This document shows positions 33,915 through 64,000 of a stretch of 64,000 bases of DNA, in pieces (position 1 is the first letter of the stretch; each line of letters begins with the position of its first letter). The notes below the pieces were generated by a model, which was not told where the DNA came from, did no database searches, and saw only the letters and a list, made by a program, of their open reading frames with translations. The translations under genes and the position numbers were made by a program. Source of the DNA: an uncultured Nitrospiraceae bacterium (GTDB lineage Bacteria > Nitrospirota > Thermodesulfovibrionia > Thermodesulfovibrionales > SM23-35); contig CAVSHB010000002.1 in NCBI GenBank assembly GCA_963727775.1, positions 448,001 through 512,000 of the forward strand, in the 5' to 3' direction.

Positions 33915-33926
33915 AGGTTGTCCCGC

Positions 33927-36926: not shown

Positions 36927-37010
36927 GAGGTACCTATAAAGGTGAAGCTCAACACTCTTTCTGGGAAAATAAATTCGGGGCTGATCTCCGGGAAATTTTT
37001 AAGTTTATAG

Positions 37011-40881: not shown

Positions 40882-41021
40882 TTTTGTGGGACATCGGCAT
40901 ACGATGAGGCGATAGTATCTTTTATTGACAAATAATGAAATGAAGAATCAAGTGAGTCGTAACAAAATCGGTTCGTGAATTTAATTTTGTGTTAATAAGC
41001 TGACTGAACAAAGGTTAAGAA

Positions 41022-41627: not shown

Positions 41628-41652
41628 ATACAAGAAAAGCAACCCATAAGCT

Positions 41653-42597: not shown

Positions 42598-42623
42598 ATA
42601 TTGTTGCGGATAATAAGAGAAGC

Positions 42624-44884: not shown

Positions 44885-44896
44885 ATGAATTAAAAG

Positions 44897-46315: not shown

Positions 46316-46469
46316 GCTATAAGAGTGAAATCCGAATCAGTTTATCTGCCCTACAGACGAGAAAGGCAACTCTTAATATGAACGATGAAGTGATAGAGAA
46401 ATGCGCGATCCCTTAAGAAATCTTTGTCGTTAAGAATTAATCGGCCTCTCAAAGTTATAAGGAGTCTCT

Positions 46470-48671
46470 GTGAGTTGCAATTGTATAAATAGCAAAATGA
46501 GAAACAATAAAGATGTACTTATTTTGATAGGTGTTATCCTTTTCTTTGTTTCAGGTAATCTTGTTTGGTTCAAAATGGATCAGGTGCCACCAATGTGGGA
46601 TCAGGCTGTATATTTAAAAGAAAGCCTGATTCTTTATGATAAGTTAACAAATGAGGGCCTCGTATCTTTTTGTAATGCTTTTACTCATGCGATTAAAATA
46701 AAGGCGCCATTAATTGCAGTTATGCCTGTGCCTTTTTATCTGCTATTTGGTAAAGGATACATAAGCGCTCTTTGTGTCAATCTTTTATTTATTTTTATCA
46801 ACAGCTATTACCTTTACAATCTTGGCGCAATAATATCAGGCCGCAGAGTTGCTTTGCTAAGTGTCCTCATTTTGAATCTTTTCCCGCTGGTATTTGGGAT
46901 GTCAAGGGAGTTTTTAGTTGAATACGGTCTCATGACCCTTGTAGTTATGTGGTTTTATTATCTTCTCAGATCGGACTGTTTTGAAAACAGGAAATATTCT
47001 CTGGTGCTCGGAATTGTTTCCGGTCTCGGAATGCTTATGAAAGTTTCTTTCCCTCTTTATGTTATTGCCCCTGCGCTCTTCCTTTGCATTAAAAGTGTCA
47101 TTAAGCAGAAGAAACTATCCGGAGTATCTATTGTGAATTTTCTGATGGCGCTTATTGCCGGAACGTTGTTGGCAGGTGTTTGGTATTTAAAGAACTTCTC
47201 CTATGTCATGGACTTCGCACTAACATCGGGATATGGACAAGTGGCGGAAAAGTACCAGATGGGCGCTGTGTTTTCACTGGAAACTATTCTTAAATATTGG
47301 TTGTTCATAATAAATTACGGCATATCCACATATATGTTTTTGGTGATTGGTTGCCTGATTATTATTTGGGGTGTCGCCTATCTGGCTAAGCGGACAGCAG
47401 CCTCACTGGAGAAAGATTATTTTTATTTCCTCTTAATTTGGTTCGCAGTTCCATTTGTTGTCTACACATTTGGAGTGAACAAAGACTACCGCTATATTAC
47501 TCCCGTTTGTCCATCTATTGCGCTATTAATGAGTATAGGACTAACCCATATCCCTTTCATTAAACTTAATACCCCGCAGTCTCTGCTGCGGGTACCTTGC
47601 GGTGTCGGGGTGCAGGGCGTCGGAGCGAAGCGGAGACCCTTGCCCACAGCACGGGGTCTAATACCCCGTGCACGGAGTACTGAGCGTAGCGAAGCTTTTA
47701 TTAAATACAGAAAGATTTTACAGGTTTTTCTTGTAATCTTACCCATTATTAACTATTTGTTTATTTCTTTTTACATGAAGCCTGTGAGTTTAGAAACCAA
47801 ACACTTTGTTTTGCTGGATAATAACCTTTCTTACACCCATCCACCTCGCAAAGAAAAATGGCCAAATGAAAGATTAATTGATTTCATACGCATTGATGCA
47901 ATAAGAACTGGAATAAGTCCTCAGTCAGTTGAGACAACATTGTTGTTTGATCATAATTATATGAACGATAGCACTCAGAATTATTATTCGAAAAAAGAAG
48001 GGGCAGGCATTAATTTTATTACAAATGACTATTATTCTAATGAGAGCATAGCCGAAACGGTTGATAAAATAGAGAATAAATCAAGCTATATTGTTACAAA
48101 ATCCGACAACCTCGGCCCGGATTTTTCGAATGTCAAAAACATTCCCATTATTGAACGTTTGAATGGAGGTAAGTTGCATTTTGAAAAAATCGGGGTGATT
48201 CCCCTGCCCGACGAGACTTTCTTAACAATTTACAGAAATAGGGATATAAAAAATAATTCAGCGGTTGAGATATTAAAAGATTACAATTCTCATGCACAGA
48301 AATTAGTCAATTTTTCGGGCAAAATAAGATTGCTGAATTCGGAATTAGAGCGCAACAAGAATGAATATCGAATGACCTTTTCCTGGGAATGTCTTGGTAA
48401 TATGGACCGAAACTACAGAATATTCGTCCATATATTTGATTCTCATAATGACTCGATTTTGAATTTGGACCATTTACCACTTGGTGCTTACCCGACATCC
48501 AAATGGAAAAAAGGAGAGATTATCAAGGATAAACTAAGATTTACAATGTATCCGGACAAAAACTTTCAGGTATACATCGGCGTGTATGAGGAAGATAATG
48601 GTAGCAGATTGCTTGTTAAGGATAAAATCGAGAACGATGATGAAAACATAAAGGGATTCAGAATTTATTAA
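46470..48671 (+). CDS. GT-C (ArnT/PMT-like) membrane glycosyltransferase with C-terminal extracytoplasmic domain; carries an in-frame repeat insertion
   Basis: PPMWDQAVY after TM1, many TM segments, GLGMLMK, NKDYRY, C-terminal YRIFVH..DH..YPTSKWKKGEII domain. Confidence 0.8.
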   Translation: MSCNCINSKMRNNKDVLILIGVILFFVSGNLVWFKMDQVPPMWDQAVYLKESLILYDKLTNEGLVSFCNAFTHAIKIKAPLIAVMPVPFYLLFGKGYISALCVNLLFIFINSYYLYNLGAIISGRRVALLSVLILNLFPLVFGMSREFLVEYGLMTLVVMWFYYLLRSDCFENRKYSLVLGIVSGLGMLMKVSFPLYVIAPALFLCIKSVIKQKKLSGVSIVNFLMALIAGTLLAGVWYLKNFSYVMDFALTSGYGQVAEKYQMGAVFSLETILKYWLFIINYGISTYMFLVIGCLIIIWGVAYLAKRTAASLEKDYFYFLLIWFAVPFVVYTFGVNKDYRYITPVCPSIALLMSIGLTHIPFIKLNTPQSLLRVPCGVGVQGVGAKRRPLPTARGLIPRARSTERSEAFIKYRKILQVFLVILPIINYLFISFYMKPVSLETKHFVLLDNNLSYTHPPRKEKWPNERLIDFIRIDAIRTGISPQSVETTLLFDHNYMNDSTQNYYSKKEGAGINFITNDYYSNESIAETVDKIENKSSYIVTKSDNLGPDFSNVKNIPIIERLNGGKLHFEKIGVIPLPDETFLTIYRNRDIKNNSAVEILKDYNSHAQKLVNFSGKIRLLNSELERNKNEYRMTFSWECLGNMDRNYRIFVHIFDSHNDSILNLDHLPLGAYPTSKWKKGEIIKDKLRFTMYPDKNFQVYIGVYEEDNGSRLLVKDKIENDDENIKGFRIY
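47563..47703 (+). mobile_element. Structured palindromic element, copy 1, inserted in frame in a CDS
   Basis: GC-rich 141-bp block inside an AT-rich gene; similar to 50173-50314; flanked by TTCATTA/TTTATTA. Confidence 0.85.
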
Positions 48672-48723
48672 TATTTCACGCACCAAGCACAACATTTATA
48701 GGGATAAGGAAGAACTTTATATA

Positions 48724-50118
48724 GTGAGAAATTTTTCTAATTTCACGAAGGGAATTATTGCATTTTACCTTTTTTCAATCGGGTATGCAATTATTACGCA
48801 ACGCCCTTTTTTTGCTGACGGAGCCCATAATTTTCTTAAGATACTCGAGATACAATCTTTTATTTATACAAATATCTTTGCGAGAGCGCATGCCATGTAT
48901 GTGTACTATTTCATCCCGTTAATCTTGATCAAGATATTTCATGTGAAAAATCTTGATTTCTTGTCGTATGCCTTTGGATTTGGACTATATCTGCCGCAGC
49001 TTGTCAGTCTGCTGATATGTTACTTTCTCACAAGAAAAAATAACATTCATTTCATGTTATTTCCTGTTATAGCCCTTTTTGGCATAACAATGAATCTTTC
49101 CTTTATCATCTTTCACGAGTCTCATCTAATTAATAATATCTTCTGGCCCATTTTATTCTATTTGATCTTAAAAGAGAACTTCTGCTGGAAGGACTCCGCC
49201 CTGTTACTTTTGCTCGGTGTCATATTTATGCGTTCCTATGAAACAGCTGCAATATTGGGGACGCTATTGATTATCTTATTAGTGGGCATAATTCGCCAGA
49301 GATGGCAAGGGGCCTTGGTGAAAACAAGAATGATTTGGATACTTATGTTGGTTATTTTTTCAGCCAGTGTAATTATTGCTACAAACTCAATAATCTCACC
49401 AGATATCCCGGCAAATCGAGCTTCTTTCATCTATTCTTTCCACAATCTTTTAAGGCACTGGATGGCTTTACTGTCTATTGGCTATATTATTCTGATATCT
49501 CTTTGCCTATTTAAGCCAGACTTTGTTAGAACATCCCTTTATCGATACATCACTGTGCTTTTGGTTGCCTTTACTATATTCATAAGCTTAACCCCGATTT
49601 TTGTGCCGAGCCTCATGAGACCCGATTTGCATTATCATGCGAGGGCCTTCATGACATATATGTTGCCCTTCCTTTCGGTTGTAGCATATTTAGTTATGAG
49701 GAATATCGTTACTGTTCCTGATTTCGCTTGGAGAAAGGTTTGGGTACTGGTGGCCTTCTTGGCACTCAGTCAGATAACCTGGCATGTGTTTGCAACGAGC
49801 CAATGGAATGGTTTCCGTCAAATATTCAAGGGCGAATTAGCCGCCCATAATGGTTTTGTGCGCGCAGAAGATACAATGCTAGTAAAAGACAATGTCGGCA
49901 TTCAATTAATTAGACCCTTAACCTGGCCATGGACAAACCCAACATTAAGTATCCTCTGGTCTAAGGATCAAGATGTCAGTACCATTATTAGTATTTCATC
50001 GATTGACTGGCCGTTTGACTGGCAACCCTTTAATCCATCAGTAGTCAGTGAACTGCCCAGAGTCGAAGGATTTGGGTTCTCCTTGGAAAAATACAGACAG
50101 GGCCTTTCTGAAAAATAA
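48724..50118 (+). CDS. Polytopic membrane protein, probable GT-C fold glycosyltransferase
   Basis: About 11 hydrophobic segments; acidic FFADG motif in the first loop; glycan-locus context. Confidence 0.55.
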   Translation: MRNFSNFTKGIIAFYLFSIGYAIITQRPFFADGAHNFLKILEIQSFIYTNIFARAHAMYVYYFIPLILIKIFHVKNLDFLSYAFGFGLYLPQLVSLLICYFLTRKNNIHFMLFPVIALFGITMNLSFIIFHESHLINNIFWPILFYLILKENFCWKDSALLLLLGVIFMRSYETAAILGTLLIILLVGIIRQRWQGALVKTRMIWILMLVIFSASVIIATNSIISPDIPANRASFIYSFHNLLRHWMALLSIGYIILISLCLFKPDFVRTSLYRYITVLLVAFTIFISLTPIFVPSLMRPDLHYHARAFMTYMLPFLSVVAYLVMRNIVTVPDFAWRKVWVLVAFLALSQITWHVFATSQWNGFRQIFKGELAAHNGFVRAEDTMLVKDNVGIQLIRPLTWPWTNPTLSILWSKDQDVSTIISISSIDWPFDWQPFNPSVVSELPRVEGFGFSLEKYRQGLSEK

Positions 50119-50172
50119 AACTCATGGTGTATGCTCTAATATTTTTTCCGTGCGTTTAGAATATATTTATTA

Positions 50173-50314
50173 ATCTCCATACCCCGCAGTCTCTGCGGCG
50201 GGCACCTTACGTCGTCGGGGTGCAGGGCGTCGGAGCGAAGCGCAGACCCTTGCCGACCCGCGGGGTCTAATACCCCGTGGTGTCGTGCCGAGCAAAGCGA
50301 GGTTTAGTTTATTA
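50173..50314 (+). mobile_element. Structured palindromic element, copy 2 (intergenic)
   Basis: ATACCCCGCAGTCTCTGC..GTCGGGGTGCAGGGCGTCGGAGCGAAGCG.AGACCCTTGCC..CGGGGTCTAATACCCCGTG shared with copy 1; flanked by TTTATTA on both sides. Confidence 0.85.
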
Positions 50315-50444
50315 TTTCCTGCGGAACTGTTAAAATTTATTAGATTGTGAAATGTGCGCCCTTGTGACAGATTCACTCTTGCAAAAAACATAATAAAAAT
50401 GATCAGGGATTTTTTCGGGGCATAACTTATCAGGTTGGAGGCAA

Positions 50445-51473
50445 ATGCAAAAAAAAAAATTACACCTCAGCGTAATCATCTGTACTTATAACCGTGCAGA
50501 ACTTCTTGAAAAGGTATTGGAGAGTCTTAAAAGCCAGACTCTCTCTAAAAACCTTTTTGAGATAATCGTTATTGACGGTTCATCTGATAATACCAAAGAT
50601 ACGGTGAAATCCTTCCAAAGCGCGCTTCCTGTCCATTATTTTTTTCAGAACGATGCAGGTCTTGCCGCCGCCAGGAATCACGGTATCTATGCATCTCAGG
50701 GAGAGATATTGCTTTTTCTTGATGATGATGATATTGCTACGCCAACACTATTGGAAGAGCATATCAAAACTCATCGGAAATATCCTGGCAATAATTATGC
50801 AGTTTTACATTACACGACCTGGGCGCCGAATCTTCTTGTTACACCATTGATGCATTTTATCACTGAGGTCGGCTGTTTTCTTTTTTCGTATCCTCAGTTC
50901 AACCATGGGGATATCCTTGATTACACCTATTTTTGGGGAGGGAGGTCTTCCTGTAAGAGATCATTCTTAATAGAATATGGAGTTTTTAACCCTCTATTTC
51001 GTTTTGGGTATGAAGATATTGAACTCGGTTACCGTCTCGCCCCGCACGGATTAAAGGTTGTTTACAATAGCAAAGCGGTAGCCAAGATGATCAGGCCTGT
51101 ATCATTCGATGATTTCTGCCGTCGACTTATTAAACAGGGAAAATCACAGTATGTTTTTAGTACCCTTCATTGTGATCAGGGCAACCATGAGGTTTACATT
51201 TGGGCAGAGATTGTCGGGGTCGAGGACAAATGGAATGCCATTAAAGACGTCTATCAGGCAAAAATCAAGTCTGCTAAGGCATTGGACAAAGTTGCCGACA
51301 TGAAACTCAAGTACGCAATGGATATGGATGAGACAACGAAGGGTTTGTTGCATAAGGCATATTGGTGGGCATTCAAGGCATGCAAAATAAAGGGCATCAT
51401 TGAGGCAAAAGAGGAGTTGCAGCAGAAAGCGCATGGCACTGAGGCAGACCGGAATGCATCTTCTCCAGCCTGA
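50445..51473 (+). CDS. Glycosyltransferase family 2
   Basis: LSVIICTYNR, AAARNHG, FLDDD, GYEDIELGYRL. Confidence 0.92.
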   Translation: MQKKKLHLSVIICTYNRAELLEKVLESLKSQTLSKNLFEIIVIDGSSDNTKDTVKSFQSALPVHYFFQNDAGLAAARNHGIYASQGEILLFLDDDDIATPTLLEEHIKTHRKYPGNNYAVLHYTTWAPNLLVTPLMHFITEVGCFLFSYPQFNHGDILDYTYFWGGRSSCKRSFLIEYGVFNPLFRFGYEDIELGYRLAPHGLKVVYNSKAVAKMIRPVSFDDFCRRLIKQGKSQYVFSTLHCDQGNHEVYIWAEIVGVEDKWNAIKDVYQAKIKSAKALDKVADMKLKYAMDMDETTKGLLHKAYWWAFKACKIKGIIEAKEELQQKAHGTEADRNASSPA

Positions 51474-51596
51474 ATATCATGCGGACACGGAGAACCCTGA
51501 GGGGACCGTCCGCAACGATAATTAGATCACCCATCATGAAGACCCATCCTGTTCGGTTTGACTTTATATTGTCACATCCGTATCTTACTATGCACA

Positions 51597-53264
51597 ATGA
51601 TTAATAAAGATTCGTTAACAGACTTCTCAGCCAACAGAAGTCAAAAGATATTAACGGTACTCACATTCGGCTTTGTCCTGTTTGTTCTTTTCTATAATTT
51701 GGGAGGTCATTTCCTTGAGGATTGGGATGAAGGTTTTTATGTCGTAATGTCGCAAACGGCAATCCAAAATAGTAACTATCTGACACTCGAGTATCAAAAT
51801 GATATTCATTGGTCTAAAACTCCGTTCCCTTTGTATCCGATGATAGCTTCGTTCAAGGTCTTTGGCGTTAACGAATTCTCTGCCCGCCTGAGTTCCGTTT
51901 TTTTTAGTTTGGGTTTACTTTTTCAGATATATCTTATTGCAAAACGCTACTACGGAGAATGGACCGCGCTCCTTGCGATATTAATAACAATTACGACAGC
52001 TCAATTTATCTTTTTTCATGGTTTAAAAACGGCCAATGTTGACGCAATTACTCTTTTTTTCCTGACCGGCGCCATAAGTTCCTGGTTATTAATAAGAAAC
52101 CCGGATTACAGAATCATAATGACCTTTGCGAGCCTCGCATTTAGTTTTCTATGCAAAGGCCCAATCGTATCAATTCCCATAATAGTGATTTGCCTGTCAT
52201 TTTTTATCGAGAATCCAATAAAAAGGGATTCCGTAAGGCCAATACTTATCGGTCTTTCTGTTGCGGCCATCATAGTCCTTCCCTGGTATATATATGCATA
52301 TATGACATATGGAGATATCTTCATAAAGAAGCACATCTTATACAACTTCCTCCAACGATATACTGCAGGGATAGAGGGGCATATACATGAGGATTTATAT
52401 TATATAAGAAATTTATTTTCAACCGGTAATTTTATCTGGATTGGTGCAGCTATGGTTTCACTCGTTTATTTCCTGGGGGTCATTTTGAAAGGAAAAAGGC
52501 CGATTGATTTTATGCTTCTTTCTTGGGTTTCTGTAACTTTTATTATTGTAAATTTCTCGCAGACAAAATTGTGGTATTATCTATATCCGATTTATCCCGC
52601 ACTTGCAATAATCACAGCAAAGACACTGTTGGATTTCGTGGAAAATCCGGGGTTTCTTAACCAATCGGCTTTTTACATCGGCTTCATACCTATGCTTATT
52701 TCTGATGATCTAACTATCTTTGGCTTTCACCCGTATATTTTCCATAAGCTCTTTTTTGATATCTTTGATGTTAATAAAACGAAAATAGCGGCTCTGTTAG
52801 CCGGTATAATTTTCATTGGAGCAGTATTTTTGTTGAAAAGGTATCTGCCGCATTACCAAAAAAAATTCAGGATCTTACTGGTGTGCATGATTTGTATAAT
52901 CCCGATTTCAGAGACATGCAAACTTACTATCAAAAAAGATCTCAATGCGCCTATACTTTCCCTTGCCAAGAAATTAGATTTTACCAAACCGGTTTACGCG
53001 CTTACTGTAAGTACTTACACTTTTCCGCCGGGGGCTTACTATTATCTATCGAGAAATGGTGAAGTAAAAATATGTACAGATTTCAGGAAGTTTTTGAAGG
53101 GGGAAACCGTCGTCATGCAGACTGTCTCATTCGAAGTACTTCAAAAATATGGGACAACAAAGAAGAATGAAGATGGAAGCCTTGAATTTGTTTATAGGGG
53201 AGATAAGTTTAAACTAACGCCAATAGAGAATTCCAAGGGTTTTACCATTGTTAAAATAGAATAA
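51597..53264 (+). CDS. ArnT-like (GT-C) membrane glycosyltransferase
   Basis: LEDWDEGFY, FGVNEFSARL, LCKGP, LPWY, SQTKLWYYLYPIYPALA. ATG 51597 is preferred because the TTG at 51558 is part of a -35 box. Confidence 0.85.
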   Translation: MINKDSLTDFSANRSQKILTVLTFGFVLFVLFYNLGGHFLEDWDEGFYVVMSQTAIQNSNYLTLEYQNDIHWSKTPFPLYPMIASFKVFGVNEFSARLSSVFFSLGLLFQIYLIAKRYYGEWTALLAILITITTAQFIFFHGLKTANVDAITLFFLTGAISSWLLIRNPDYRIIMTFASLAFSFLCKGPIVSIPIIVICLSFFIENPIKRDSVRPILIGLSVAAIIVLPWYIYAYMTYGDIFIKKHILYNFLQRYTAGIEGHIHEDLYYIRNLFSTGNFIWIGAAMVSLVYFLGVILKGKRPIDFMLLSWVSVTFIIVNFSQTKLWYYLYPIYPALAIITAKTLLDFVENPGFLNQSAFYIGFIPMLISDDLTIFGFHPYIFHKLFFDIFDVNKTKIAALLAGIIFIGAVFLLKRYLPHYQKKFRILLVCMICIIPISETCKLTIKKDLNAPILSLAKKLDFTKPVYALTVSTYTFPPGAYYYLSRNGEVKICTDFRKFLKGETVVMQTVSFEVLQKYGTTKKNEDGSLEFVYRGDKFKLTPIENSKGFTIVKIE

Positions 53265-53376: not shown

Positions 53377-55428
53377 TTGAAACTTAAGACAGCGTGTTTA
53401 ATCGTAATTCTTATCAGCTTTATAGTTTTATTTGCAGCAGTTCCTAATACTTACTCTCAGAACGAAGAACAGGTAAAGCCTCCTGAAACAACCGCCGCCG
53501 CGCCTGAAAAACAGCCCGTTGAAAAAGGACAGCAGGAAGTTCAGCAGCCCGGAATTTTACCGCCACAGCCCAATGCCGGGCAGGCGCCTTCTGCTCAACC
53601 AGAAAAGGTCCCGGCTGAAAAGTCCACGACTGGAATAACGCCGGTTATGCCCGCTGAGGCGCCACAGCAGCAGAAATCCCCGGCCACTGTGAGTTTCTTT
53701 TTTGACGACGCCGATATATTCGAGGTAGTCCAGACGGTCTTTGCCGATATTCTCAAGGTGAATTATATTATCGACCCGCAGGTGAAGGGCAGGGTGAATT
53801 TCAGAACAGTAACGCCTATCCCAAAAGATGAAGTCCTCTCCGTCATCAATATAATCTTCAGGCTGAACGGCATAGGTTATGTTGAAGAAGGCGGGCTTTA
53901 CAGGATAATACCCCTGACCGAAGTCCCTAAAGAGCTTGTCTATTCTCAAGTAGGGAAGCCCCCGGACAAAGTTGCTGTCGAGATGTTCACATTTAAAAAT
54001 CTTGACCTGAAGGAAGCCATGCCGGATATTCAAAATGCATTGGGGCTGTACCTGAAAGGCGGCACAGTCAGGATAATTCCCGTAGACCGTCTGAACGCGC
54101 TCATCGTTGTAGCTTCTTCCAGGGAAAACCTGGAGTATATAAGAAAATGGGTCGATGTGTTCGATGCCATGTTTTTGGTAGCAAGGCCAAAGATATACGT
54201 TTATTCTTTGCAGAACAGCAAGGCGGACCATATTGCGTCTTTGCTCCAGTCAATTTTCTCGGGCAGCGCAGCACCGTCATCGCCCACCACCCCATCATCT
54301 GTTTCTCAGCCGTCCAAGTCCCCTACACAAACCGGCGCTGCGTCTGCGCCTGCGCCGACGTCGTCAGCGCCCAGAACAGGGGCTGCGGCGACTGCAACGA
54401 GTTCCGGCACATTTGTCTCACGTGACACGAGGGTCTTTGCGGACGATATAACCAACTCCCTGATAATTCTCGCAATACCTGCTGATTATAAATTTATTGA
54501 AGAGACGATAAAAAAGATCGATAAGCAGCAGAGGCAGGTCGTAATCGAAGGGCTCATAGCCCAGGTAACACTGACGGATAACCTGAGTTTCGGGTTCTCG
54601 TGGTCCTTAAATACAAAAGCCAATATATCGGGCATAAAACCTTTTACAAACGGTATCAACCTTGCCGGCACCGCATCTAACAATGCGGGTGATTTTGCGA
54701 ATGTCCCGACGACCGGGTTTACTTTTGTGGGGACAGACCCGACAGGTAATGTAAGAGCATTGCTCAACGCTGCATTAATAGATTCTAAAGGCAAGGTCCT
54801 TGCAGCCCCTCATATCCTCGTGTCTGATAACCGTGAGGCGAGGATACAGGTCGGGTCACAGATTCCCCTTGCAACTTCTACGACTTCTTATATTACAACT
54901 ACGACCTCGACAACTCCTACTACAACCACTAATCCTATCACCTCCTCAGTCGAGTACAAAGATATAGGAATTATTCTTAAGGTGAAACCCCAGATTAATG
55001 ACAGCGGCGTGGTTACGCTTGAGTTGACCCAGGAGGTTTCATCTGTGGGCAGCCCGGTAACTATAGCCGGACAGGATTTTTCATCCATAGATAAGACCGA
55101 GGCCACCACTAACCTGGTTGCAAAAGACGGAGAGACGATTATTATCGGAGGTCTCATAAGGGAAGATGTCACAAAGTCAAAAACAGGCATTCCTTTCCTC
55201 AGTAAAATCCCATTGCTCGGTAGTCTGTTTTCTGATACAACCGATAAATCAACAAGAACGGAGCTCATAATCCTTCTCACACCTCGTGTAGTTAGGAACC
55301 AAAAGGAAGCCGCAGATGTGACAACAGATTATTTAGACAGATATAGAAGCACTACAAAGGACAAAGATATCAACGATTTCATAAAAGAAAAAAACCGGCA
55401 AAAGAATGACACAAAGGATGTCCACTAA
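53377..55428 (+). CDS. gspD: Type II secretion secretin, GspD/PulD family
   Basis: Signal peptide; N0 domain FFFDDADI..NYIIDPQVKGRV; QVVIEGLIAQV, APHILVSDNREARIQVG, DIGIILKVKPQIN, IPFLSKIPLLG.LF, RTELIILLTPRVV. Confidence 0.9.
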   Translation: MKLKTACLIVILISFIVLFAAVPNTYSQNEEQVKPPETTAAAPEKQPVEKGQQEVQQPGILPPQPNAGQAPSAQPEKVPAEKSTTGITPVMPAEAPQQQKSPATVSFFFDDADIFEVVQTVFADILKVNYIIDPQVKGRVNFRTVTPIPKDEVLSVINIIFRLNGIGYVEEGGLYRIIPLTEVPKELVYSQVGKPPDKVAVEMFTFKNLDLKEAMPDIQNALGLYLKGGTVRIIPVDRLNALIVVASSRENLEYIRKWVDVFDAMFLVARPKIYVYSLQNSKADHIASLLQSIFSGSAAPSSPTTPSSVSQPSKSPTQTGAASAPAPTSSAPRTGAAATATSSGTFVSRDTRVFADDITNSLIILAIPADYKFIEETIKKIDKQQRQVVIEGLIAQVTLTDNLSFGFSWSLNTKANISGIKPFTNGINLAGTASNNAGDFANVPTTGFTFVGTDPTGNVRALLNAALIDSKGKVLAAPHILVSDNREARIQVGSQIPLATSTTSYITTTTSTTPTTTTNPITSSVEYKDIGIILKVKPQINDSGVVTLELTQEVSSVGSPVTIAGQDFSSIDKTEATTNLVAKDGETIIIGGLIREDVTKSKTGIPFLSKIPLLGSLFSDTTDKSTRTELIILLTPRVVRNQKEAADVTTDYLDRYRSTTKDKDINDFIKEKNRQKNDTKDVH

Positions 55429-55467
55429 TTACCGGTCTGGTCCTTTTTGCCTGTACCTTCTAATTGA

Positions 55468-56235
55468 ATGCTTCAGGAATCTGAAATAATTCCTTATCAC
55501 CTCTCTCAGCCTTCGTGGGAGAAAGTTTTGGTCCTTGCACCCCATCCCGACGATGAGACCCTCGGCTGCGGTGGAGTCATCAGGTCTTTGGTCGAATCAA
55601 AAAAACGCGTTAAGGTCATATTTCTCACAAGCGGAGATAAAGGGGAGCCCGCTCATCCTTTATCAGGCATAAAGCATGCCGGAGAACACATCACGGATTA
55701 TTCGTTGATGCGTGAGAACGAGGCGATTAAGGCTCTCAGTGTATTGGGGGTCTCCGATTATGAATTTTTGAGATTCCCTGACAGGGAGCTGCATCTGCAT
55801 TCCGGCAAAATTCTTGAGAGGCTTTTAAAGATAGCGGGAGAATATGCCCCAGACGCGGTTTTCAGCCCGTCAATAATCGAATTTAACCCAGACCACCGGA
55901 CGACAGCGCAAGTGTCACTGAAGATGCATAGAACGATGAATTCCGAAGATAAAAAGGGTGTACGGTGTAGCCTTGTGTTTTATGAAGTGACAACGCCATT
56001 CAGGCCTAATATGCTCGTAGATATAACATCAGTCTATAACAGGAAAAAGAAAGCGATCAAGAAATACAAATCCCAATTGAAGGTCACGGATTATCTCAGC
56101 TACATCGCGGCGCTTAATACGGTCCGTTCTCTGACGGTCCGTGGACCGCGTTATGTCGAGGCGTTCTGGATTGTGGAAGCTTTTGCCGCTGATGAGGACA
56201 TTGCAAATTGGCTGTCATATCAGACGGCGATGTAA
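55468..56235 (+). CDS. PIG-L/LmbE family de-N-acetylase
   Basis: VLVLAPHPDDETLGCGG, R..EA, PDH, YKSQL. Confidence 0.92.
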   Translation: MLQESEIIPYHLSQPSWEKVLVLAPHPDDETLGCGGVIRSLVESKKRVKVIFLTSGDKGEPAHPLSGIKHAGEHITDYSLMRENEAIKALSVLGVSDYEFLRFPDRELHLHSGKILERLLKIAGEYAPDAVFSPSIIEFNPDHRTTAQVSLKMHRTMNSEDKKGVRCSLVFYEVTTPFRPNMLVDITSVYNRKKKAIKKYKSQLKVTDYLSYIAALNTVRSLTVRGPRYVEAFWIVEAFAADEDIANWLSYQTAM

Positions 56236-56251
56236 CGGATTATTTATCATT

Positions 56252-56356
56252 TGTATCAAAAAATACACAGCACAGTTCATAAAAAACACATGCTGCCCTT
56301 GAACATCCTTTAAAATCAAGCATTGCGCAAGGAAAAACGTGGCCTGATTTTTGCTA
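56252..56356 (+). promoter_or_regulatory. Sigma54 promoter (56340-56356) with candidate upstream activator site
   Basis: TGGCCTGATTTTTGCTA (GG-N10-GC) and TGT-N10-ACA palindrome TGTATCAAAAAATACA at 56252-56267. Confidence 0.7.
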
Positions 56357-56387
56357 TAAATTTTATAGAGTGACTATTCAAAAATAC

Positions 56388-56416
56388 TTGACATTGATAG
56401 GACAAGCAATTATACT
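56388..56416 (+). promoter_or_regulatory. Near-consensus sigma70 promoter
   Basis: TTGACA-17 nt-TATACT. Confidence 0.75.
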
Positions 56417-56497
56417 CTTAGCGTTATAAGATGAACGAGGCATGGCAAGTGTTCAATTATTCGGTGATGGAAAACAATGCGAATAGTAAAAAAAAGC

Positions 56498-56526
56498 TTG
56501 ACAAGGGAATAGTTCATTATTATAAT
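56498..56526 (+). promoter_or_regulatory. Perfect-consensus sigma70 promoter
   Basis: TTGACA-17 nt-TATAAT. Confidence 0.8.
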
Positions 56527-56741
56527 TTCAAAAACTATATCCCTTTAAGGGGGGTGAGGCGAAAATAATAATAGCTATTTGGTATCATCTATAGCTGCTT
56601 AACGTTAATTGCAATTTTTTTTTAAGAAAAGGAGGTGATAGAAAGGAGGAGATGTAAAGCGGACATATTGGTTTTTTTATGAAGTTCTTAGCCATCGGTT
56701 AAGAAAAAAGCACGGAGACTTAATAAAAAGGAGGTTTGAAA

Positions 56742-57965
56742 GTGAAGATAAGAAGCTTATTAACAGTTGTTGCAATGCTTAGTGTTTTGCTTTTTGGCAT
56801 CGGAACGGCCCACGCTGTTCTCGGCGTTGATGATAACGTCCCGGGCCAGGATATCGCGTTTCCGATCATTTGCAGTGCTCCTACTCCCTACCCTGCTGGT
56901 GCGACCGCCGGAGTGGATACTGCTTGGGCTATCGCTGATGTAGCAGGTACCGGTTCCCTATTCAACGTCGGCGGAGTTGTCAACTATACGTCAGCTCTTC
57001 ATATCGTTGTGCACGAGCCGAAGAATTCCTCACAGGTGAAGGACCTTCAGATCTACTTTACGCCGTTTGAGCTGCAGACGGACCTTTGCTCCCACATAAT
57101 TTCACTGGTGGATGTCGCTGCTAGGCCTAAACTTGTACAGAACCTGTGTGATAGCGGCGGAAATTGCCAGAACTACTATGTAGCTTATCTGACCTTCACG
57201 CAGAACCAAGGCACATTTGGCGGCAGCGCGGTAAGCGACCGTTTTGTTTCGTGGGTGGTATTTGACGACCTTAACAATGGTTATGCTTCAGGGTTTGACG
57301 GGCTTAGTCTTGAACTCGGCGCTGGCCCGGAACTGGAAGAGAATGGTGGTAATGTTGCCATTGCAGCGCGCCATATCTATCCAAGGTATGTTATACAGAA
57401 CGATCCGGCCCTGAAGCCCCAGGGACACGATTGGTGGATACTGCTGTTCGGTAGGGCGGACATAACCACAAAATTCGGAACCACTGATGCCAACTGGTCC
57501 GGCAATAGAAATCTTCAGTGTTTCTTCTACGACGAGGATGAGCATGTTGCCTCTAACACCGTCCCGATACCCAATGAGCTTAATGTGGTCGATGTGGACC
57601 CTTGGGTGACCGGTCTCTTTGCGGGCTATCCGCATAACGGTTTTGCAGTTTGCGATATACAGGAAGATGGAAGCCACACCGGCACCGGTCTTCACAACAG
57701 GGGAACATATGATAATCCTTCGCTCGTAAGCAATCTCCTTCCTCTGAGCACCGGTTATTATACGTTTGTTGGCTGGTCCCATGCGAAAGTGCAGGGGACA
57801 AGCGTACTAGCGACCTGGGATGTTATCTGGCCGATACACAGGACGTATTGCAGCCCGTTAATGCCGGCTGGTGGTAGCGCTGGTACGACCGCAGCTGATA
57901 CACGCGAGGACTGCAATTGCAAGGGTCCTGGGACAGGAAGTCCGGTCAACGGAGGCGGGTGTTAA
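56742..57965 (+). CDS. Secreted Cys-containing protein of unknown family; candidate major surface-array subunit
   Basis: Sec signal with AHA/VLG cleavage; 10 Cys; Gly/Ala/Asn/Thr-rich; GTG start 7 nt after GGAGG; has its own terminator. Confidence 0.8.
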   Translation: MKIRSLLTVVAMLSVLLFGIGTAHAVLGVDDNVPGQDIAFPIICSAPTPYPAGATAGVDTAWAIADVAGTGSLFNVGGVVNYTSALHIVVHEPKNSSQVKDLQIYFTPFELQTDLCSHIISLVDVAARPKLVQNLCDSGGNCQNYYVAYLTFTQNQGTFGGSAVSDRFVSWVVFDDLNNGYASGFDGLSLELGAGPELEENGGNVAIAARHIYPRYVIQNDPALKPQGHDWWILLFGRADITTKFGTTDANWSGNRNLQCFFYDEDEHVASNTVPIPNELNVVDVDPWVTGLFAGYPHNGFAVCDIQEDGSHTGTGLHNRGTYDNPSLVSNLLPLSTGYYTFVGWSHAKVQGTSVLATWDVIWPIHRTYCSPLMPAGGSAGTTAADTREDCNCKGPGTGSPVNGGGC

Positions 57966-58005
57966 TTAGTCGTTAGACCATTTGTAGTTTATTAGGGAGT
58001 TTGAG

Positions 58006-58034
58006 AAGGGGGATGAAAACATCCCCCTTTTTTT
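58006..58034 (+). terminator. Rho-independent terminator
   Basis: AAGGGGGATG-AAAA-CATCCCCCTT followed by a T-tract. Confidence 0.9.
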
Positions 58035-58061
58035 CAATAATCCGGTTTAAGAGGAGGAACC

Positions 58062-59321
58062 TTGAAGAGAGCGTTGAATGTGGTGTCCGTTTTTATTCTC
58101 TTATTGATTATGAGCTGCGCCACAACAAAGGAAACTACGAAGGAAAGCAAAGCAGAGAATAAGGGAGCCTTAACCCTTATAGATATATCAGACGGATTGC
58201 CTAAGGATGGTTTATGGAGGCAGAACATTTCTCTCGTTGATATGAACGGCGACGGCTTTCTGGATATTGTCGCTCCTCCCCCGAGAAAAGCCGGGGCAGG
58301 AGCAGCGGGAGAAAACAGGCCTTATATATTTCTCTGGAGTCAAGAGGATAGTAAATGGAGAGAGGGTTCCTTTAACCTGACGGAGAGCAAAAACTTCACT
58401 TATGGGGGAATAGCAGTAGGCGATCTGAGGAGGACCGGTTACACCGATATCGTCTTCGCGATCCACGCAGGATCGATCGTAATTTTGGAAAATGACAAGA
58501 ATAAAGGCTTTGTCGAAAGGCCCTTTCCGATGGAGAAGACATTTTATGCGAGGACAGTGGAGGTTGCGGATGTCAATGGGGACGGTTGGCCGGATATTAT
58601 AGCCTTTTCAGAGGGACCATTTGTTCGTGACTATACGCCTGCCGGCATCCTTGTCGGGATAAATAAGGAGGGCAAGGGTTGGGACGTGAAAATCCTGGAA
58701 GGGAGTTCCGAATTGTCAGGTGACTCCATGGCTATAGGGCAGCTCAAGGGAGACGGCAATAAAGATATACTTATTGCTCCTCTGACAGGGATAAAGGAAC
58801 AGAAAAAGCTGGTCTGGTTCGGGGACGGGAAGGGGAATTTCAAAAACTACGATGGCGACCTCGTGGGCAATGAAGTGTCCATGAACGTCAGGGCAGGTGA
58901 TGTTGATGGAGATGGAAAGGACGAAATTGTCTTCAGGCTGGCTGCTCCCGGCGCCTTCGGAAAAAACCGGCTAGCTGTTTTTAAGTGGACAGGGGAAGGC
59001 TTTACGGAGATGTCAAAAGGATTGGAGGCCATAGATACCCCCCTGGTCTTCGACCTTGTGGATTTGTTTGGGGACGGAAAGAAGATCCTGGTTGTGCTCT
59101 CGGGAAAGGCCATCGGCCTATATAAATACATAGATCAAAGCTGGGTAAATGTCGGATCCCATGAGTTGCCCGCTGTCGAGACAATGGGCGCCCATGATTT
59201 GAGGGCTGGAAGGAACCGCGATGGTTCAGTGTTTATTGTCTATAATCTCGGGTATAAATCTCCCGACTTAAACCTAGGGCTACGGGCATTCAAAGTGAAA
59301 TCGGATGGAGGAAAGAATTGA
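58062..59321 (+). CDS. FG-GAP/VCBS repeat beta-propeller lipoprotein
   Basis: Lipobox IMSC; repeats DMNGDGFLDIV, DVNGDGWPDII, DVDGDGKDEIV, DLFGDG. Confidence 0.85.
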   Translation: MKRALNVVSVFILLLIMSCATTKETTKESKAENKGALTLIDISDGLPKDGLWRQNISLVDMNGDGFLDIVAPPPRKAGAGAAGENRPYIFLWSQEDSKWREGSFNLTESKNFTYGGIAVGDLRRTGYTDIVFAIHAGSIVILENDKNKGFVERPFPMEKTFYARTVEVADVNGDGWPDIIAFSEGPFVRDYTPAGILVGINKEGKGWDVKILEGSSELSGDSMAIGQLKGDGNKDILIAPLTGIKEQKKLVWFGDGKGNFKNYDGDLVGNEVSMNVRAGDVDGDGKDEIVFRLAAPGAFGKNRLAVFKWTGEGFTEMSKGLEAIDTPLVFDLVDLFGDGKKILVVLSGKAIGLYKYIDQSWVNVGSHELPAVETMGAHDLRAGRNRDGSVFIVYNLGYKSPDLNLGLRAFKVKSDGGKN

Positions 59322-59752
59322 TGTTTCAAGAAGAAAGAACATGGAGACTGTCCGTTGATAGGAATTCCCTGCTGCTTTTGCTGGCCCTGATGATGGTTGT
59401 TATATTCACCTGCTGCGCAACAATTCCAAAGGAAGAAGACTTGAGAGGATCATTGAAAAGCGCAGCGGAGGAATACTGGAACAAGCGGATGAAATACCAA
59501 TACGAAGATACCTATGGGATGGAAGACAAGACGGGCTTACCGGCTTTCGAAGATTACCGCGAAAAGGCAATGCTGATGAAGAAGCTGGATATAAGATCGC
59601 ACTCCGTAAAGGAAGTCGCTGTCAGTGGTGATGAAGGAACTGTGAACGTTCAGTTTGATCTTATGCTTCCTCACATACCTAAGGCAGTTTCCCAAGTCCT
59701 TAAAGATGGATGGGTCTATAAGAACGGGAAATGGCGGCATGTGTTCAGATGA
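59318..59752 (+). CDS. Small putative lipoprotein (NTF2-like fold suspected)
   Basis: Hydrophobic stretch ending in FTCCA; EEYW...WVYKNGKW; start overlaps the upstream stop. Confidence 0.65.
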   Translation: MMFQEERTWRLSVDRNSLLLLLALMMVVIFTCCATIPKEEDLRGSLKSAAEEYWNKRMKYQYEDTYGMEDKTGLPAFEDYREKAMLMKKLDIRSHSVKEVAVSGDEGTVNVQFDLMLPHIPKAVSQVLKDGWVYKNGKWRHVFR

Positions 59753-59764
59753 GGTGACGCTTGT

Positions 59765-59905
59765 TGTCGCAGATGTTGACAAAAACCGGCGATATTTTTG
59801 TAAAGTGTTAGATTAAGTATCTTCAATAATCTTCAATAATAAAATATAATTCTTGACAAACTCTCCGGCGTATGCTAAATATTAAAAGATTGGTATGAAA
59901 TATGC
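59765..59905 (+). promoter_or_regulatory. Sigma54 promoter (59891-59905) with candidate upstream activator site
   Basis: TGGTATGAAATATGC (GG-N10-GC); palindrome TGTC-N9-GACA at 59765-59781. Confidence 0.5.
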
Positions 59906-60007
59906 GAAATATAATTCGGAGTAAAGGCATTGTGTGTAATGAGATTTAGTATTTCTCATGGCATACGGCTTATTATAAACATAATAATGCATAGCAGGAG
60001 GTAAGGG

Positions 60008-61273
60008 ATGAAAAGATTTCTCATAGCTTGTATTTCGATTGCAGCCATTTTAGGCTTAGCCGCTGTTACATGGGCGCAGGAGGCAAGCGTCTTTGATAGC
60101 GCTGAAAAAATCATTGTCAGGGTTTTTATCACTAATACCGGCAGTGGCGGATGTCTGCTGGAGCCGCCGACGACGGGTCTTCCATGTTATTCTGCGTTTA
60201 TTGAGGTGAGGGATTCCAGCAGTGCGATAATTTCCGCAAATAAACTTGTTGTCGACGGTATGATAATTCCTTCTTTTGTGGGAACAACAAATACAGACGG
60301 TACAATTATTCCGAACGCGAATCCATTCCAGATTCACAATAGTGATCTTACAGATCCTGACGTAACCATGTCTATAGACAATGATACAGGCAAAATTTAC
60401 GTCTTCTGCACAAATACGACCCCCGGTTTACATGTTATGCAATACAATATCAGTAATTCATCGAATGGAGTGTGCGGCACAACGCTCAACACCTGTACGC
60501 AGGGTACTTTTGCTGATATCGCTGACACAACTACGAATTATCTTTGGAACTGCGAAGGTTCAGGCGGAGGATCAACAGCATCGTGCTCGCTTCCGATACC
60601 GGTGAATGGAGTGTGCGGCACAACGCTCAACACCTGTACGCAGGGTACTTTTGCTGATATCGCTGACACAACTACGAATTATCTTTGGAACTGCAAAGGT
60701 TCAGGCGGAGGATCAACAGCATCGTGCTCGTTGTCGATACCGGTAAACGGAGTATGCGGATCATCGAACGGGCAGACATTAGCAACAAAGCCAACCTCAA
60801 ATCTCTGCGGTGACGCGTCACTACCGACAGTGAGCGGCAGCGGGCCTTGGACCTGGACTTGTGCCGGAACAAATGGCGGAAATTCAGCAAGTTGTTCGGC
60901 CAACCTGCAAAGCACAGGCGCCGATCTTATAATAACCTCTCTTCAGGGACCGGGCTCAGTAGGTGGAGCGGGCAGTTGGATTACTCCCGTGACGATTCAG
61001 AACGTGGGAGTTGGACCTGTTGTCGGGAGCTTTACCGTCAAAGTCTATCTAGCCAGCGGTCGTTCACTTGTCGGTGCGCAAGTTTTAGCTACGTACACAG
61101 TTACGAGCGGATTGGGCGTGGGGCAATCGTTGAACCTTTCTATTCCGACGACTGTCACCAGCCTCGGTCTGCACAGTTGGTATGTGCTCGGCGCCAAAGT
61201 AGATGCCGATAATAATATTGTTGAGAGTAACGAAGCGAATAACGAGGCGTACGTATTATTCCAGTGTCTCTGA
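60008..61273 (+). CDS. Secreted protein with Cys-rich repeats and C-terminal CARDB domain
   Basis: Signal peptide ending in TWA/Q; three NGVCG...W.C.G..GG..ASC modules; ADLIITSL...KVDADNNIVESNEANN. Confidence 0.85.
   Translation: MKRFLIACISIAAILGLAAVTWAQEASVFDSAEKIIVRVFITNTGSGGCLLEPPTTGLPCYSAFIEVRDSSSAIISANKLVVDGMIIPSFVGTTNTDGTIIPNANPFQIHNSDLTDPDVTMSIDNDTGKIYVFCTNTTPGLHVMQYNISNSSNGVCGTTLNTCTQGTFADIADTTTNYLWNCEGSGGGSTASCSLPIPVNGVCGTTLNTCTQGTFADIADTTTNYLWNCKGSGGGSTASCSLSIPVNGVCGSSNGQTLATKPTSNLCGDASLPTVSGSGPWTWTCAGTNGGNSASCSANLQSTGADLIITSLQGPGSVGGAGSWITPVTIQNVGVGPVVGSFTVKVYLASGRSLVGAQVLATYTVTSGLGVGQSLNLSIPTTVTSLGLHSWYVLGAKVDADNNIVESNEANNEAYVLFQCL
60464..60745 (+). repeat. 141-bp in-frame tandem duplication (47 aa)
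   Basis: AATGGAGTGTGCGGCACAACG at 60464 and 60605; the two units are nearly identical. Confidence 0.95.
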
Positions 61274-61284
61274 TATAGTCCTTG

Positions 61285-61320
61285 CCGCTTAGAGGGGAAT
61301 ATTTATTCCCCTCTAAGCGG
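61285..61320. repeat. Perfect hairpin (16-17 bp stem) between the CARDB gene and the yfhO-like gene
   Basis: CCGCTTAGAGGGGAAT-ATTT-ATTCCCCTCTAAGCGG. Confidence 0.8.
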
Positions 61321-61326
61321 AAAACC

Positions 61327-64000
61327 ATGAACAAGAATACCCACTGTATCTTCCTCTTACCTCTCTTGATCCTTATTTTTTTTTGTGATATTCTCTTTTT
61401 CGGCAAGACCCTCTCGACCGCTTCTCTTCTTCCCGGCGCAACACCGTCCGGCCCTTATGGTTTCTCAGGCCAGCGGCCCGAAATGCCCTTTTCCTTTGAC
61501 GTAGGCGGGAATGCATGGGTCAATGAGCCAAACCCGTACATTATAAGGCGCCTTCTTAATGAGGGCGGTGAATTGCCTTTCTGGAACCCCCATGAAGGCT
61601 TAGGCATGCCTCTTATCGCGAACATGAACAACGAGGTCCTGAACCCTCTGAAATTAGCTCTGAATTTATCTCCAGGTCCCTTTTCACAGGACATATTCTT
61701 TCTCCTGAGGCTGCTTGTCATGGGCATCTTCACCTATCTCTTTCTGAGGGAGCTGAAGCTCTCTCCGGCGTCCTGTCTCCTTGGGTCTTCTTCTTTCATG
61801 TTGTCCGGATACTCCGTCTGGTGGATAAATCTCCATCCGCTGAGCACTGTAATGTATCTGCCCGCGGTTTTTTATTTCTACGAGAGATGGGGCAATCGAA
61901 AGGACCTTAAGAGTCCCTTTCTTATGTCGCTGTTTCTCTGCTTTGCCTTTGTTGCAGGGAAGATACCCGATGTGATTATGGGCCTCTCTCTTCTTTTCAG
62001 CTATGCTCTGTGGAAGGGCATCATGGAACCTTCTCGTAAAAGGTTTTACCGGGAGGGAGGGAAGGTGCTCTTCGTCGCGCTCTCAGGCGCGCTCATGGCA
62101 GCCGTCGCTCTGATTCCTTTTATTGAACTCCATTCTCATGCCTCACCTTTGGCCAAGGCCATAAGGACAGGAGCGGCCGGCCACACAATCCCTTTTATTA
62201 CATCTGTATCTCTTTTCCAGCCCCTCTTTCTCGGCTGGAAGAACTATTTTTACGGTTCATGGCTCAGGTGGACCCCTGATGTGATCCTGCCCTATGCAAC
62301 TACAGTGATACTGTTATTGACCTTTTACGCGGTTCTCAACCGCACTATCTTAACAAGAACCTTTCCCTATTTCGTATTCTCAATATTTCTATTTTCCATA
62401 GTGTATGGTCTCTTACCATCCCATATTATGGTGCGATTGCCCGTTTTCAGAAGCATAGAATTTCTAAAATACAACGGTATGCTCTATTTTTCCCTATCTG
62501 TAATGTCCGCCCATTCTTTTGATAACCTCTTATCTGCCGAGGGAAACAAGAAGAGATTCCTTATCTCAATTGCGGTGGTCTCCTTATTAATCCTTGCATA
62601 TTTCTCCTTTCTGTACCGGCTGAGTCCCTCGCATATGAGCAGTTACATGATTACTATTCTTCTTTTCTCACTTGCAGGATTGTTTATCATAGGTCTGGTC
62701 TTCCACTTCTTTGAGAGCAAACAAATATTCGGGATAGCGATCTTTCTGTTTCTCATGGGCGAGCTTTTCCTATACATGCCGAAGGAGCACCCGGACAGGA
62801 CCGATCCTTACAGGAAGCCGCCTTACCTTGATCTCATTAAGGGGAGAGAGCCTTATCGGATTACCGGCGATGGAAGCTCTCTGCCTCCTCTTGTGAGCGG
62901 CGCCTTTGGTTTATATGATGCAAGGGGTATCAGTGTCTTGATGCAGGGGGATTATTATTATTTCTTTGAGAACCTTTTGGGGTTCAGCCTTCCCGGCACA
63001 AACAACCCTGATCCGCTCTTCACTGCTACGTCTCCCTTTATAGACCTTGCGGGCGTGAAGTACATAATGAGCCGTGAGCCTTTGGAGCGATCGAAGATCG
63101 AGGAGAAGGTAAGATCGCATATAGGCTCCTTGAGGCTGGTTCGCCTCTTTGAGGCAATGATGAATCATGCGATTAAAGGGGAAGCGACCTATGGGTCCTT
63201 TGATCCGGGCGGCGACATGAGGTTTTCCATCTTTTTCCCGATGACGTTTGCATTTGAAACAAAACTCAGGATATCGGAACCTTTTATTGTTGCAGGATTT
63301 ACGTTGACGGACGTCCCGAAAGGCGCAACCGCTAGGGTCAGAATAACGATGAAAAACAGGGTTGAAGAATTGATTGTCAGGGAAGGCGATTGGAAAGACC
63401 AATGGCTGGATGTCTCCAATTATTCAGGAAAGGTCATTACTATTAGAATTGAGGGAACGAGTTTCGGCAACGGAAGGATAGTGTTGGGGAATTTCGGTCT
63501 TTCACCGGGATATGAAAGAGAGAGAATTCTCTATAACAATCTCCTGACACTTCACAAAAAGGAGTTGGATTTCCTAAAATACAAAGGAGCATATGAAGGT
63601 ATCCATATATACGAGAATACCAATGTTATGGACAGGGCCTTTGTTCTGCATAGGGCAAGATTGGTGAGAAATCTCGATGAAGCGATAAAAGAGCTCCAGG
63701 AGGGGGCCGACTTCAGGGAGATGGGTCTCGTATCTGATATTGCGCCCGAAATCTCAAGAATGGCGCCCGACCTATTTACGGAGGAAAAGAGTAACGGAGG
63801 CGCTCCTGTGGCCGACGATAAAATCATAATGAAAAAATATACCGCTGATGAGGTGGCGATGGAAGTGGAATCGAGGGGCGGACTCCTTGTCCTGAGCGAC
63901 CTCTATTACCCTGGATGGAAGGTGAAGGTGAATGGGCAACAGGAAACGATTGTGAGCGCATTCGGTCTCTTTAAAGGGGTCTTTATTAAAGGGGGGAGGA
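61327..64000 (+). CDS. YfhO-family (GT-C) membrane protein, running off the window end
   Basis: Manual translation from ATG 61327 gives LPFWNPHEGLGMPLIAN near the N-terminus and, in the same frame, GGLLVLSDLYYPGWKVKVNG near the end. Absent from the ORF track because no stop lies in the window. Confidence 0.85.
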   Translation, partial: MNKNTHCIFLLPLLILIFFCDILFFGKTLSTASLLPGATPSGPYGFSGQRPEMPFSFDVGGNAWVNEPNPYIIRRLLNEGGELPFWNPHEGLGMPLIANMNNEVLNPLKLALNLSPGPFSQDIFFLLRLLVMGIFTYLFLRELKLSPASCLLGSSSFMLSGYSVWWINLHPLSTVMYLPAVFYFYERWGNRKDLKSPFLMSLFLCFAFVAGKIPDVIMGLSLLFSYALWKGIMEPSRKRFYREGGKVLFVALSGALMAAVALIPFIELHSHASPLAKAIRTGAAGHTIPFITSVSLFQPLFLGWKNYFYGSWLRWTPDVILPYATTVILLLTFYAVLNRTILTRTFPYFVFSIFLFSIVYGLLPSHIMVRLPVFRSIEFLKYNGMLYFSLSVMSAHSFDNLLSAEGNKKRFLISIAVVSLLILAYFSFLYRLSPSHMSSYMITILLFSLAGLFIIGLVFHFFESKQIFGIAIFLFLMGELFLYMPKEHPDRTDPYRKPPYLDLIKGREPYRITGDGSSLPPLVSGAFGLYDARGISVLMQGDYYYFFENLLGFSLPGTNNPDPLFTATSPFIDLAGVKYIMSREPLERSKIEEKVRSHIGSLRLVRLFEAMMNHAIKGEATYGSFDPGGDMRFSIFFPMTFAFETKLRISEPFIVAGFTLTDVPKGATARVRITMKNRVEELIVREGDWKDQWLDVSNYSGKVITIRIEGTSFGNGRIVLGNFGLSPGYERERILYNNLLTLHKKELDFLKYKGAYEGIHIYENTNVMDRAFVLHRARLVRNLDEAIKELQEGADFREMGLVSDIAPEISRMAPDLFTEEKSNGGAPVADDKIIMKKYTADEVAMEVESRGGLLVLSDLYYPGWKVKVNGQQETIVSAFGLFKGVFIKGGR

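Follow-up and report, generated by a model that had tools for sequence, protein, structure and literature searches.

A candidate S-layer subunit remotely akin to NpdA, encoded behind the secretin of a second type II secretion system in an uncultured Nitrospiraceae bacterium

What is the 407-aa secreted protein that is encoded behind a gspD secretin gene in an uncultured Nitrospiraceae bacterium, and how would it leave the cell? The stretch of DNA analysed here, the window, comprises 64,000 nucleotides (C2:448001-512000) of a 3.43-Mb genome (G000), and the protein is encoded at positions 56742 to 57965. An original prediction, made from the window alone, had taken it for the abundant structural subunit of a surface layer (S-layer), exported by a secretin that stands alone. 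Our analysis suggests that the protein is a remote relative of NpdA-type proteins and likely the major S-layer subunit, that it forms a predicted dimer, and that it is likely exported by a second type II secretion system (T2SS), and to this reading we give a probability of about 0.68. The subunit and its export through this secretin are favoured by remote kinship to a protein of an npdA-type locus and by the second T2SS beside a complete general one; the stand-alone secretin did not survive. An outer protein coat, in groups of bacteria for which we came across no description of one, is likely because the protein is distantly related to NpdA and occupies a conserved, fast-changing slot beside the secretin of the second T2SS. 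It is likely that we are dealing with a new variant of the NpdA-type, T2SS-linked S-layer and not with a new kind of system.

The window genome contains three secretins, namely a PilQ-like one at C2:359-361 kb (labelled from position and size), a GspD within a complete gsp run at C2:368-379 kb, and the GspD of the window, which is another one. The latter is alone only as far as the window extends, since gspE, F, H, I, J, K, L and M and a gspC-like gene are located at C2:524.7-536.5 kb, on the opposite strand and 13-25 kb beyond the window end, and a second gspG is located at C2:41.6 kb. Further glycan genes and wzm/wzt lie between the window and the distal gsp genes, which are adjoined by wbaP. 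All components (GspD, E, F, G, H-K, L, M and C) were found for the second system; GspD, GspE, GspM and the second GspG scored over the cut-off, GspF, GspH, GspI, GspK and GspL were assigned below the cut-off or by similarity, and GspJ and the GspC-like protein were assigned by eye. Because the partner genes lie past the window, and because gspE directly adjoins gspD in another locus (L007), this is, as judged from gene content, a second full T2SS wrapped around glycan and surface genes. In Aeromonas, a dedicated PulD homologue, SpsD, is reportedly encoded next to the S-layer gene. An exclusive dedication of the secretin to the 407-aa family was not supported, since the GspD type occurs in 88 of the 251 genomes of the order and the close family in 16, 15 of which have the type.

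The kinship with NpdA was reached through the protein found behind gspD in another locus (L069), which matches four plasmid records, one of them a 510-aa "cell surface protein" of Comamonas odontotermitis (WP_224153019.1). The gene for the latter has a gspE-to-gspD run upstream and genes for a peptidyl-prolyl isomerase (PPIase), an ATP-binding cassette (ABC) transporter, a methyltransferase and a glycosyltransferase (GT) downstream; C. odontotermitis is listed as a holder of an npdA ortholog, and the upstream gsp run corresponds to the published npdA layout (PMC10765051). Iterative hidden Markov model (HMM) searches were performed in a small local pool, made up of 244 sequences of the family, 3005 decoys from the genome and another 244 that had been reversed, and included 0 of the 3249 decoys. 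The search from WP_224153019.1 led to the sequence P0160 in the first round and to the window protein in round 5 (1e-34, after E 0.014 in round 4), and from the window protein, with relaxed filters, WP_224153019.1 was recovered at E 8e-4 in round 3 and 2.7e-5 in round 4. Residues 39-107 of the 407-aa protein align directly with the Comamonas proxy (E 2.7e-5). These searches show first strands that are remotely akin to those of an NpdA-type protein, which is not orthology.

The NpdA S-layer system is described from Delftia acidovorans, Paracidovorax citrulli and other Beta- and Gammaproteobacteria (PMC10765051, PMC3110197). Like NpdA, the 407-aa protein has a Sec signal peptide (judged by eye), no recognised domain (Pfam and NCBIfam), related N-terminal strands (by way of the Comamonas protein), ABC, GT and methyltransferase genes nearby, and a gene that follows a gsp cluster with gspD as its last member, gspD being here two genes upstream and the other gsp genes beyond the window; partial gsp clusters have also been reported at npdA loci (PMC10765051). 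A protein of the NpdA type is expected to form the paracrystalline layer and an SDS-resistant oligomer; the strong self-association of NpdA has its counterpart here in a predicted dimer only. Unlike NpdA, the 407-aa protein is shorter (382 versus ~490 mature residues), is related by iterated profiles only, belongs to a Cys-rich subfamily and occurs in other phyla, its gsp genes are split around a glycan cluster, and it is accompanied by a conserved FG-GAP lipoprotein, a small lipoprotein, a CARDB protein and a GT-C gene, none of which is annotated in the Comamonas stretch. Nitratiruptor plasmids (L072 and L073) also carry NpdA-like genes, one plasmid having two of them, in the neighbourhood of PPIase and pseudopilin-like genes and of genes for secretin/GspE and GTs, and these loci are, to judge from their genes, a mobile version of the NpdA-like system.

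All open reading frames (ORFs) of the original prediction were found where it had placed them, including the gene order from gspD to the GT-C-like gene and the glycan genes upstream of gspD, and the features of the locus are as follows.

31464..53264, glycan gene cluster (GT2/GT4, methyltransferases, heptose-pathway-like, GT-C/PMT_2), about 22 kb, upstream of gspD
53377..55428, + strand, GspD secretin of the second T2SS (TIGR02517, 374.8 bits, cut-off 351.35)
55468..56235, + strand, PIG-L family deacetylase
56340..56355, + strand, sigma54-like promoter site
56388..56416, + strand, distal sigma70-like promoter, 11/12
56498..56526, + strand, proximal perfect sigma70-like promoter, 12/12
56629..56639, + strand, orphan Shine-Dalgarno-like site, ~113 nt 5' of the start codon of the 407-aa gene
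56742..57965, + strand, candidate S-layer subunit, a secreted protein of 407 aa; remote NpdA-like relative whose first domain is predicted to be ASRT-like
58006..58034, + strand, intrinsic terminator-like hairpin and T-run, -18.4 kcal/mol
58062..59321, + strand, FG-GAP repeat lipoprotein, conserved downstream partner (lipobox-like Cys judged by eye)
59318..59752, + strand, small lipoprotein of 144 aa without known family, conserved partner (lipobox-like Cys judged by eye)
60008..61273, + strand, secreted Cys-repeat/CARDB protein, variable, candidate minor surface protein (141-nt unit x2.1)
61282..64000, + strand, GT-C-like membrane protein of 946 aa, ending 122 nt beyond the window

The YfhO match that had been given to the last of these is weak (in an ortholog, 27.3 bits versus a cut-off of 28.5).

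The cassette is conserved in the loci examined, and the expected linkage of homologues to gspD, the lipoprotein pair and glycan genes was borne out. Among eight loci from genome contigs, the FG-GAP, small lipoprotein, CARDB and GT-C genes follow in seven (the remaining contig is too short, and one GT-C gene is fragmentary), and gspD is located upstream in five, clearly absent there in one, and cut off in two. The FG-GAP ortholog is present in 12 of the 251 genomes of the order, each time with a family gene next to it. Six of the 19 remote metagenome loci are longer, and four of these contain the triad of family gene, FG-GAP gene and small lipoprotein gene, while one has the FG-GAP gene up to the contig end and one ends inside the gene; upstream in two of the six lie gspL and gspM, a secretin gene, wzm/wzt and a gene for a PIG-L-GT2 fusion, PIG-L being fused to GT2 at the corresponding position in remote loci. 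In L007 and L043, gspD is directly adjacent to the family gene. When 20 of 87 other gspD loci were surveyed (chosen for high scores, from several families, without a strong family hit), 11 had a candidate of 336-492 aa after gspD; compared without their signal peptides, six of these slot proteins link to the family by hhalign (87-94%) and one by the Comamonas route. A second group of secreted slot proteins (L052, L061, L063 and L064) are mutually related, with no relation to the 407-aa family shown.

The expression signals are conserved as well, and the three stacked promoters and the terminator of the gene proved to be two sigma70-like sites, one sigma54-like site and the hairpin. They exceed what chance would give: two upstream sigma70-like sites of at least 11/12 were found for only 2 of the 2461 genes of the window genome, in which the background is 41 genes for a sigma54-like site and 14 for an orphan Shine-Dalgarno-like site; an RpoN-box gene, which bears on the sigma54-like site, is present. 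The proximal 12/12 site is one of 23 perfect sites genome-wide, and 12 of the 23 stem from a single repeated element. An ORF of 543 aa, which we call IS-like (resembling an insertion sequence) from repetition alone, occurs at 12 places in the genome (e.g. C1:135288-136919) and is preceded, 8 nt from its start, by a perfect sigma70 site. Counted over loci that are kin and not independent, sigma70 sites in tandem are found again in 10 of 12 close loci, a perfect one is present in 7 of 13 remote loci, the orphan Shine-Dalgarno-like site, 93-136 nt 5' of the start, in 22 of 25 homologous loci, and the sigma54-like site in 13 of 23 related loci, with none among the 5 remote ones. The hairpin, which is absent from the list of the consensus scan, is kept among related loci. 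In Bacillus cry genes, an orphan Shine-Dalgarno-like site in the leader stabilises the mRNA. Such a site is also found ~87 nt before the called start of a type IV pilin-like gene beside the second gspG (G000:C2:41523-42839).

While these regulatory sites are conserved, the coding sequence diverges much more strongly than the neighbouring genes, with ortholog identities of 29-52% for the 407-aa protein, 57-64% for GspD, 39-59% for FG-GAP and 49-70% for GT-C. On the short contigs L029-L035 and L039, the leaders and the first 20-86 coding bases are identical or near-identical and the proteins only 46-84% identical; on this comparison, they are many alleles in one shared frame. A conserved leader in front of a variable coding sequence would offer a route to S-layer genes missed by sequence search.

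The protein itself has a signal-peptide-like N-terminus (by eye), 10 Cys and 382 mature residues, with a predicted unmodified mature chain of ~40.8 kDa. A single-sequence search yielded 22 relatives, the named ones being from Nitrospirota metagenome-assembled genomes (MAGs), several of them Thermodesulfovibrionia, and a profile search among 1.84 billion representatives yielded 216. Of 162 full-length family sequences, 87 form a core group with a median of 10 Cys and 60 form a remote group, whose named members are Deltaproteobacteria/Thermodesulfobacteriota MAG proteins, with a median of 2; because of this difference, Cys richness is, by these counts, a trait of a subfamily and not a hallmark of the whole family, and the suggested new disulfide-defined family was not supported. 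Four Cys columns are conserved at 92-98% in the core group, two of which are missing from the window protein. The Atlas neighbours of the protein, whose recognition is below the mark of the tool and which serve as leads, are unnamed clusters from Planctomycetota, Methylomirabilota, Thermodesulfobacteriota and Myxococcota. In the window genome the gene is single-copy, and no paralog of it was found there. In other loci, remote paralogs adjoin the cassette (L003:17637-18686, L021:10932-11957, L024:3073-4077 and L025:6380-7393; hhalign 98% to the family), two genomes have further copies away from it (L049 and L050), and one protein of 1446 aa (P0176) contains four tandem family units and has a basic C-terminal tail. 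We found no publication on this family in Nitrospirota, and a survey table of more than 150 S-layers, a partly available source, may hold NpdA or a member (10.1101/2024.05.28.596244).

The structure model of the 407-aa protein is mostly beta (pLDDT 79, pTM 0.82), and a tight homodimer predicted for it scored 0.85 versus 0.00 for the best control, with 96% agreement of contacts and a pLDDT of at least 89; 20 of 30 solved pairs attained the mark for this score, as did 1 of 23 single chains. The fold predicted by the models is a beta-sandwich whose first domain is ASRT-like, and the predicted dimer is two-fold, with swapped strands. The predicted first domain resembles TM1070 (Thermotoga)/ASRT and has the eight-stranded beta-sandwich of the ASRAH superfamily; of the ASRAH signature residues, the near-invariant Asn after strand 2 is present in only 6 of 90 core sequences and 12 of 70 remote ones, and the Trp at the start of strand 1 in 9 of 90 at the likely column (strands assigned by eye). 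Secreted ASRAH forms carry two or four domain copies (PMC2739507); the second domain here has a single-sequence model with a pLDDT of only 38, and hhalign of domain 1 versus domain 2 gave 0.3%. No publication on an ASRT-like fold in an S-layer was found.

If the protein is an S-layer subunit, high expression would result from the stacked promoters and a ribosome-protected long leader, and Sec export would be followed by folding and disulfide formation in the periplasm, possibly aided, as would be assembly or anchoring, by the FG-GAP and small lipoproteins. The subunit would then pass through GspD, and dimers would assemble into a lattice resting on a glycan from the flanking wbaP/wzm/wzt/GT cluster, most simply the O-polysaccharide of lipopolysaccharide (LPS), and the alleles of the subunit would change rapidly under pressure from predators or phages.

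Several observations weigh against an NpdA-type S-layer. The search that started from the window protein halted at E 0.0012 under default filters, the direct overlap with the NpdA-type protein covers only ~70-75 N-terminal residues (hhalign 55%, E 1.2e-4), and the E-values are optimistic because the pool was built of 244 family sequences. Furthermore, the Comamonas protein was taken as NpdA from its species, size and locus, and not via a tested NpdA (WP_011797163, DelCs14_2799). In L004 and L024, gspD is not adjacent to the family gene; in 9 of the 20 surveyed gspD loci, one of them truncated at the end of its contig and another that of the closest secretin (G459), gspD is followed by no such gene; and for 4 of the 11 slot proteins neither hhalign nor iterated profiles gave a link to the family. 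In addition, the predicted dimer is a closed two-fold one, and ASRT-like domains were published, in the part of that source available, as sugar-binding modules and not as lattice formers (PMC2739507).

It is also conceivable, if unlikely, that an abundant T2SS-exported surface protein stays as discrete dimers, in a glycan-binding coat, an adhesin or a matrix or sheath, with no two-dimensional crystal. The kinship to an npdA-type locus, tested members of which form S-layers, and the single-copy gene with extreme, conserved expression signals speak against this. The family gene is always found among glycan genes, and many of the 88 genomes with the secretin type have no detected family gene beside it, as expected if the protein were a periplasmic or accessory part of the glycan or secretion machinery (e.g. 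a polysaccharide carrier or lectin) and the T2SS served other cargo, such as the CARDB protein. This is improbable, since the family gene belongs to the most variable ones of the cassette and has promoters and a terminator to itself, where the reverse would be expected of a machinery part. A secreted enzyme, which a few invariant acidic or basic residues in the core family (R215 and E267) might suggest, is the least credible of all, since no match was found in Pfam, NCBIfam, PDB sequences or Foldseek PDB, which is consistent with the original prediction, and a Foldseek-independent structure search yielded only small beta-sandwiches.

Decoration of the S-layer subunit by GT-C enzymes with a heptose-containing glycan would be compatible with an NpdA-type layer and is possible, though we lean against it. 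The S-layer glycan of Aneurinibacillus thermoaerophilus is said to be fed by GDP-D-glycero-alpha-D-manno-heptose. Several GT-C-like proteins and heptose-pathway-like genes, the latter best hits below NCBIfam cut-offs, flank the gene, the downstream GT-C ortholog is conserved in the cassette, and the protein has three N-x-S/T sequons, which, however, are not conserved in the alignment (by eye). The glycan cluster continues beyond the window with wzm/wzt and wbaP, which fit LPS O-polysaccharide equally, and the glycan genes may build that instead. Moreover, NpdA assembly is reported to be LPS-dependent, and the word "glycosyl" is absent from the available part of that report (PMC3110197); the Methylomirabilis S-layer is encoded amid GT genes, yet no glycan was found (PMC8671808).

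Among other known systems, mela_00855 of Methylomirabilis lanthanidiphila is likewise a small hypothetical secreted protein encoded among GT genes, but it differs by an IPTL-CTERM anchor and a Thr-rich tail, and no common motifs were seen by eye (PMC8671808). The candidate S-layer gene also resembles those of Slr4 (Pseudoalteromonas) and Aeromonas, which lie beside a T2SS cluster thought to be dedicated (PMC7821379, PMC10765051); the Slr4 Pfam model PF19526 gave no hit for the 407-aa protein or 70 remote members, and the Atlas feature score of only 0.79 is a lead at most. We tentatively suggest, at somewhat less than even odds, that NpdA, the Nitrospirota/Desulfobacterota family and the unnamed Planctomycetota, Methylomirabilota, Myxococcota and Campylobacterota clusters form one large, unrecognised superfamily of T2SS-exported, ASRT-like-sandwich S-layer proteins, in an exchangeable slot behind gspD (stacked promoters, ribosome-protected leader and terminator), with the FG-GAP and small lipoprotein pair as a dedicated lattice assembly or anchoring module. 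If the protein is indeed an NpdA-like S-layer subunit, this would name the outer-coat protein of uncultured sulfur- and nitrogen-cycling bacteria, widen the range of NpdA-type S-layers from Proteobacteria to several other phyla, provide the first fold assignment and a dimer building block for the NpdA-type family, and make the two conserved lipoproteins testable assembly factors.

Some minor features of the cassette were also observed. The Cys repeats of the CARDB protein contain a recent 141-nt tandem duplication (window 60463-60759, 95% match), and in its orthologs the middle, Cys-repeat part is swapped for other domains. An ORF inside the cassette of L007 (13499-14107) weakly matches an exosortase H-associated membrane protein. 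A small two-gene pair, presumably a nucleotidyltransferase/HEPN-like module, is inserted after gspD or PIG-L in two loci (L001:3208-3983 and L051:2598-3343).
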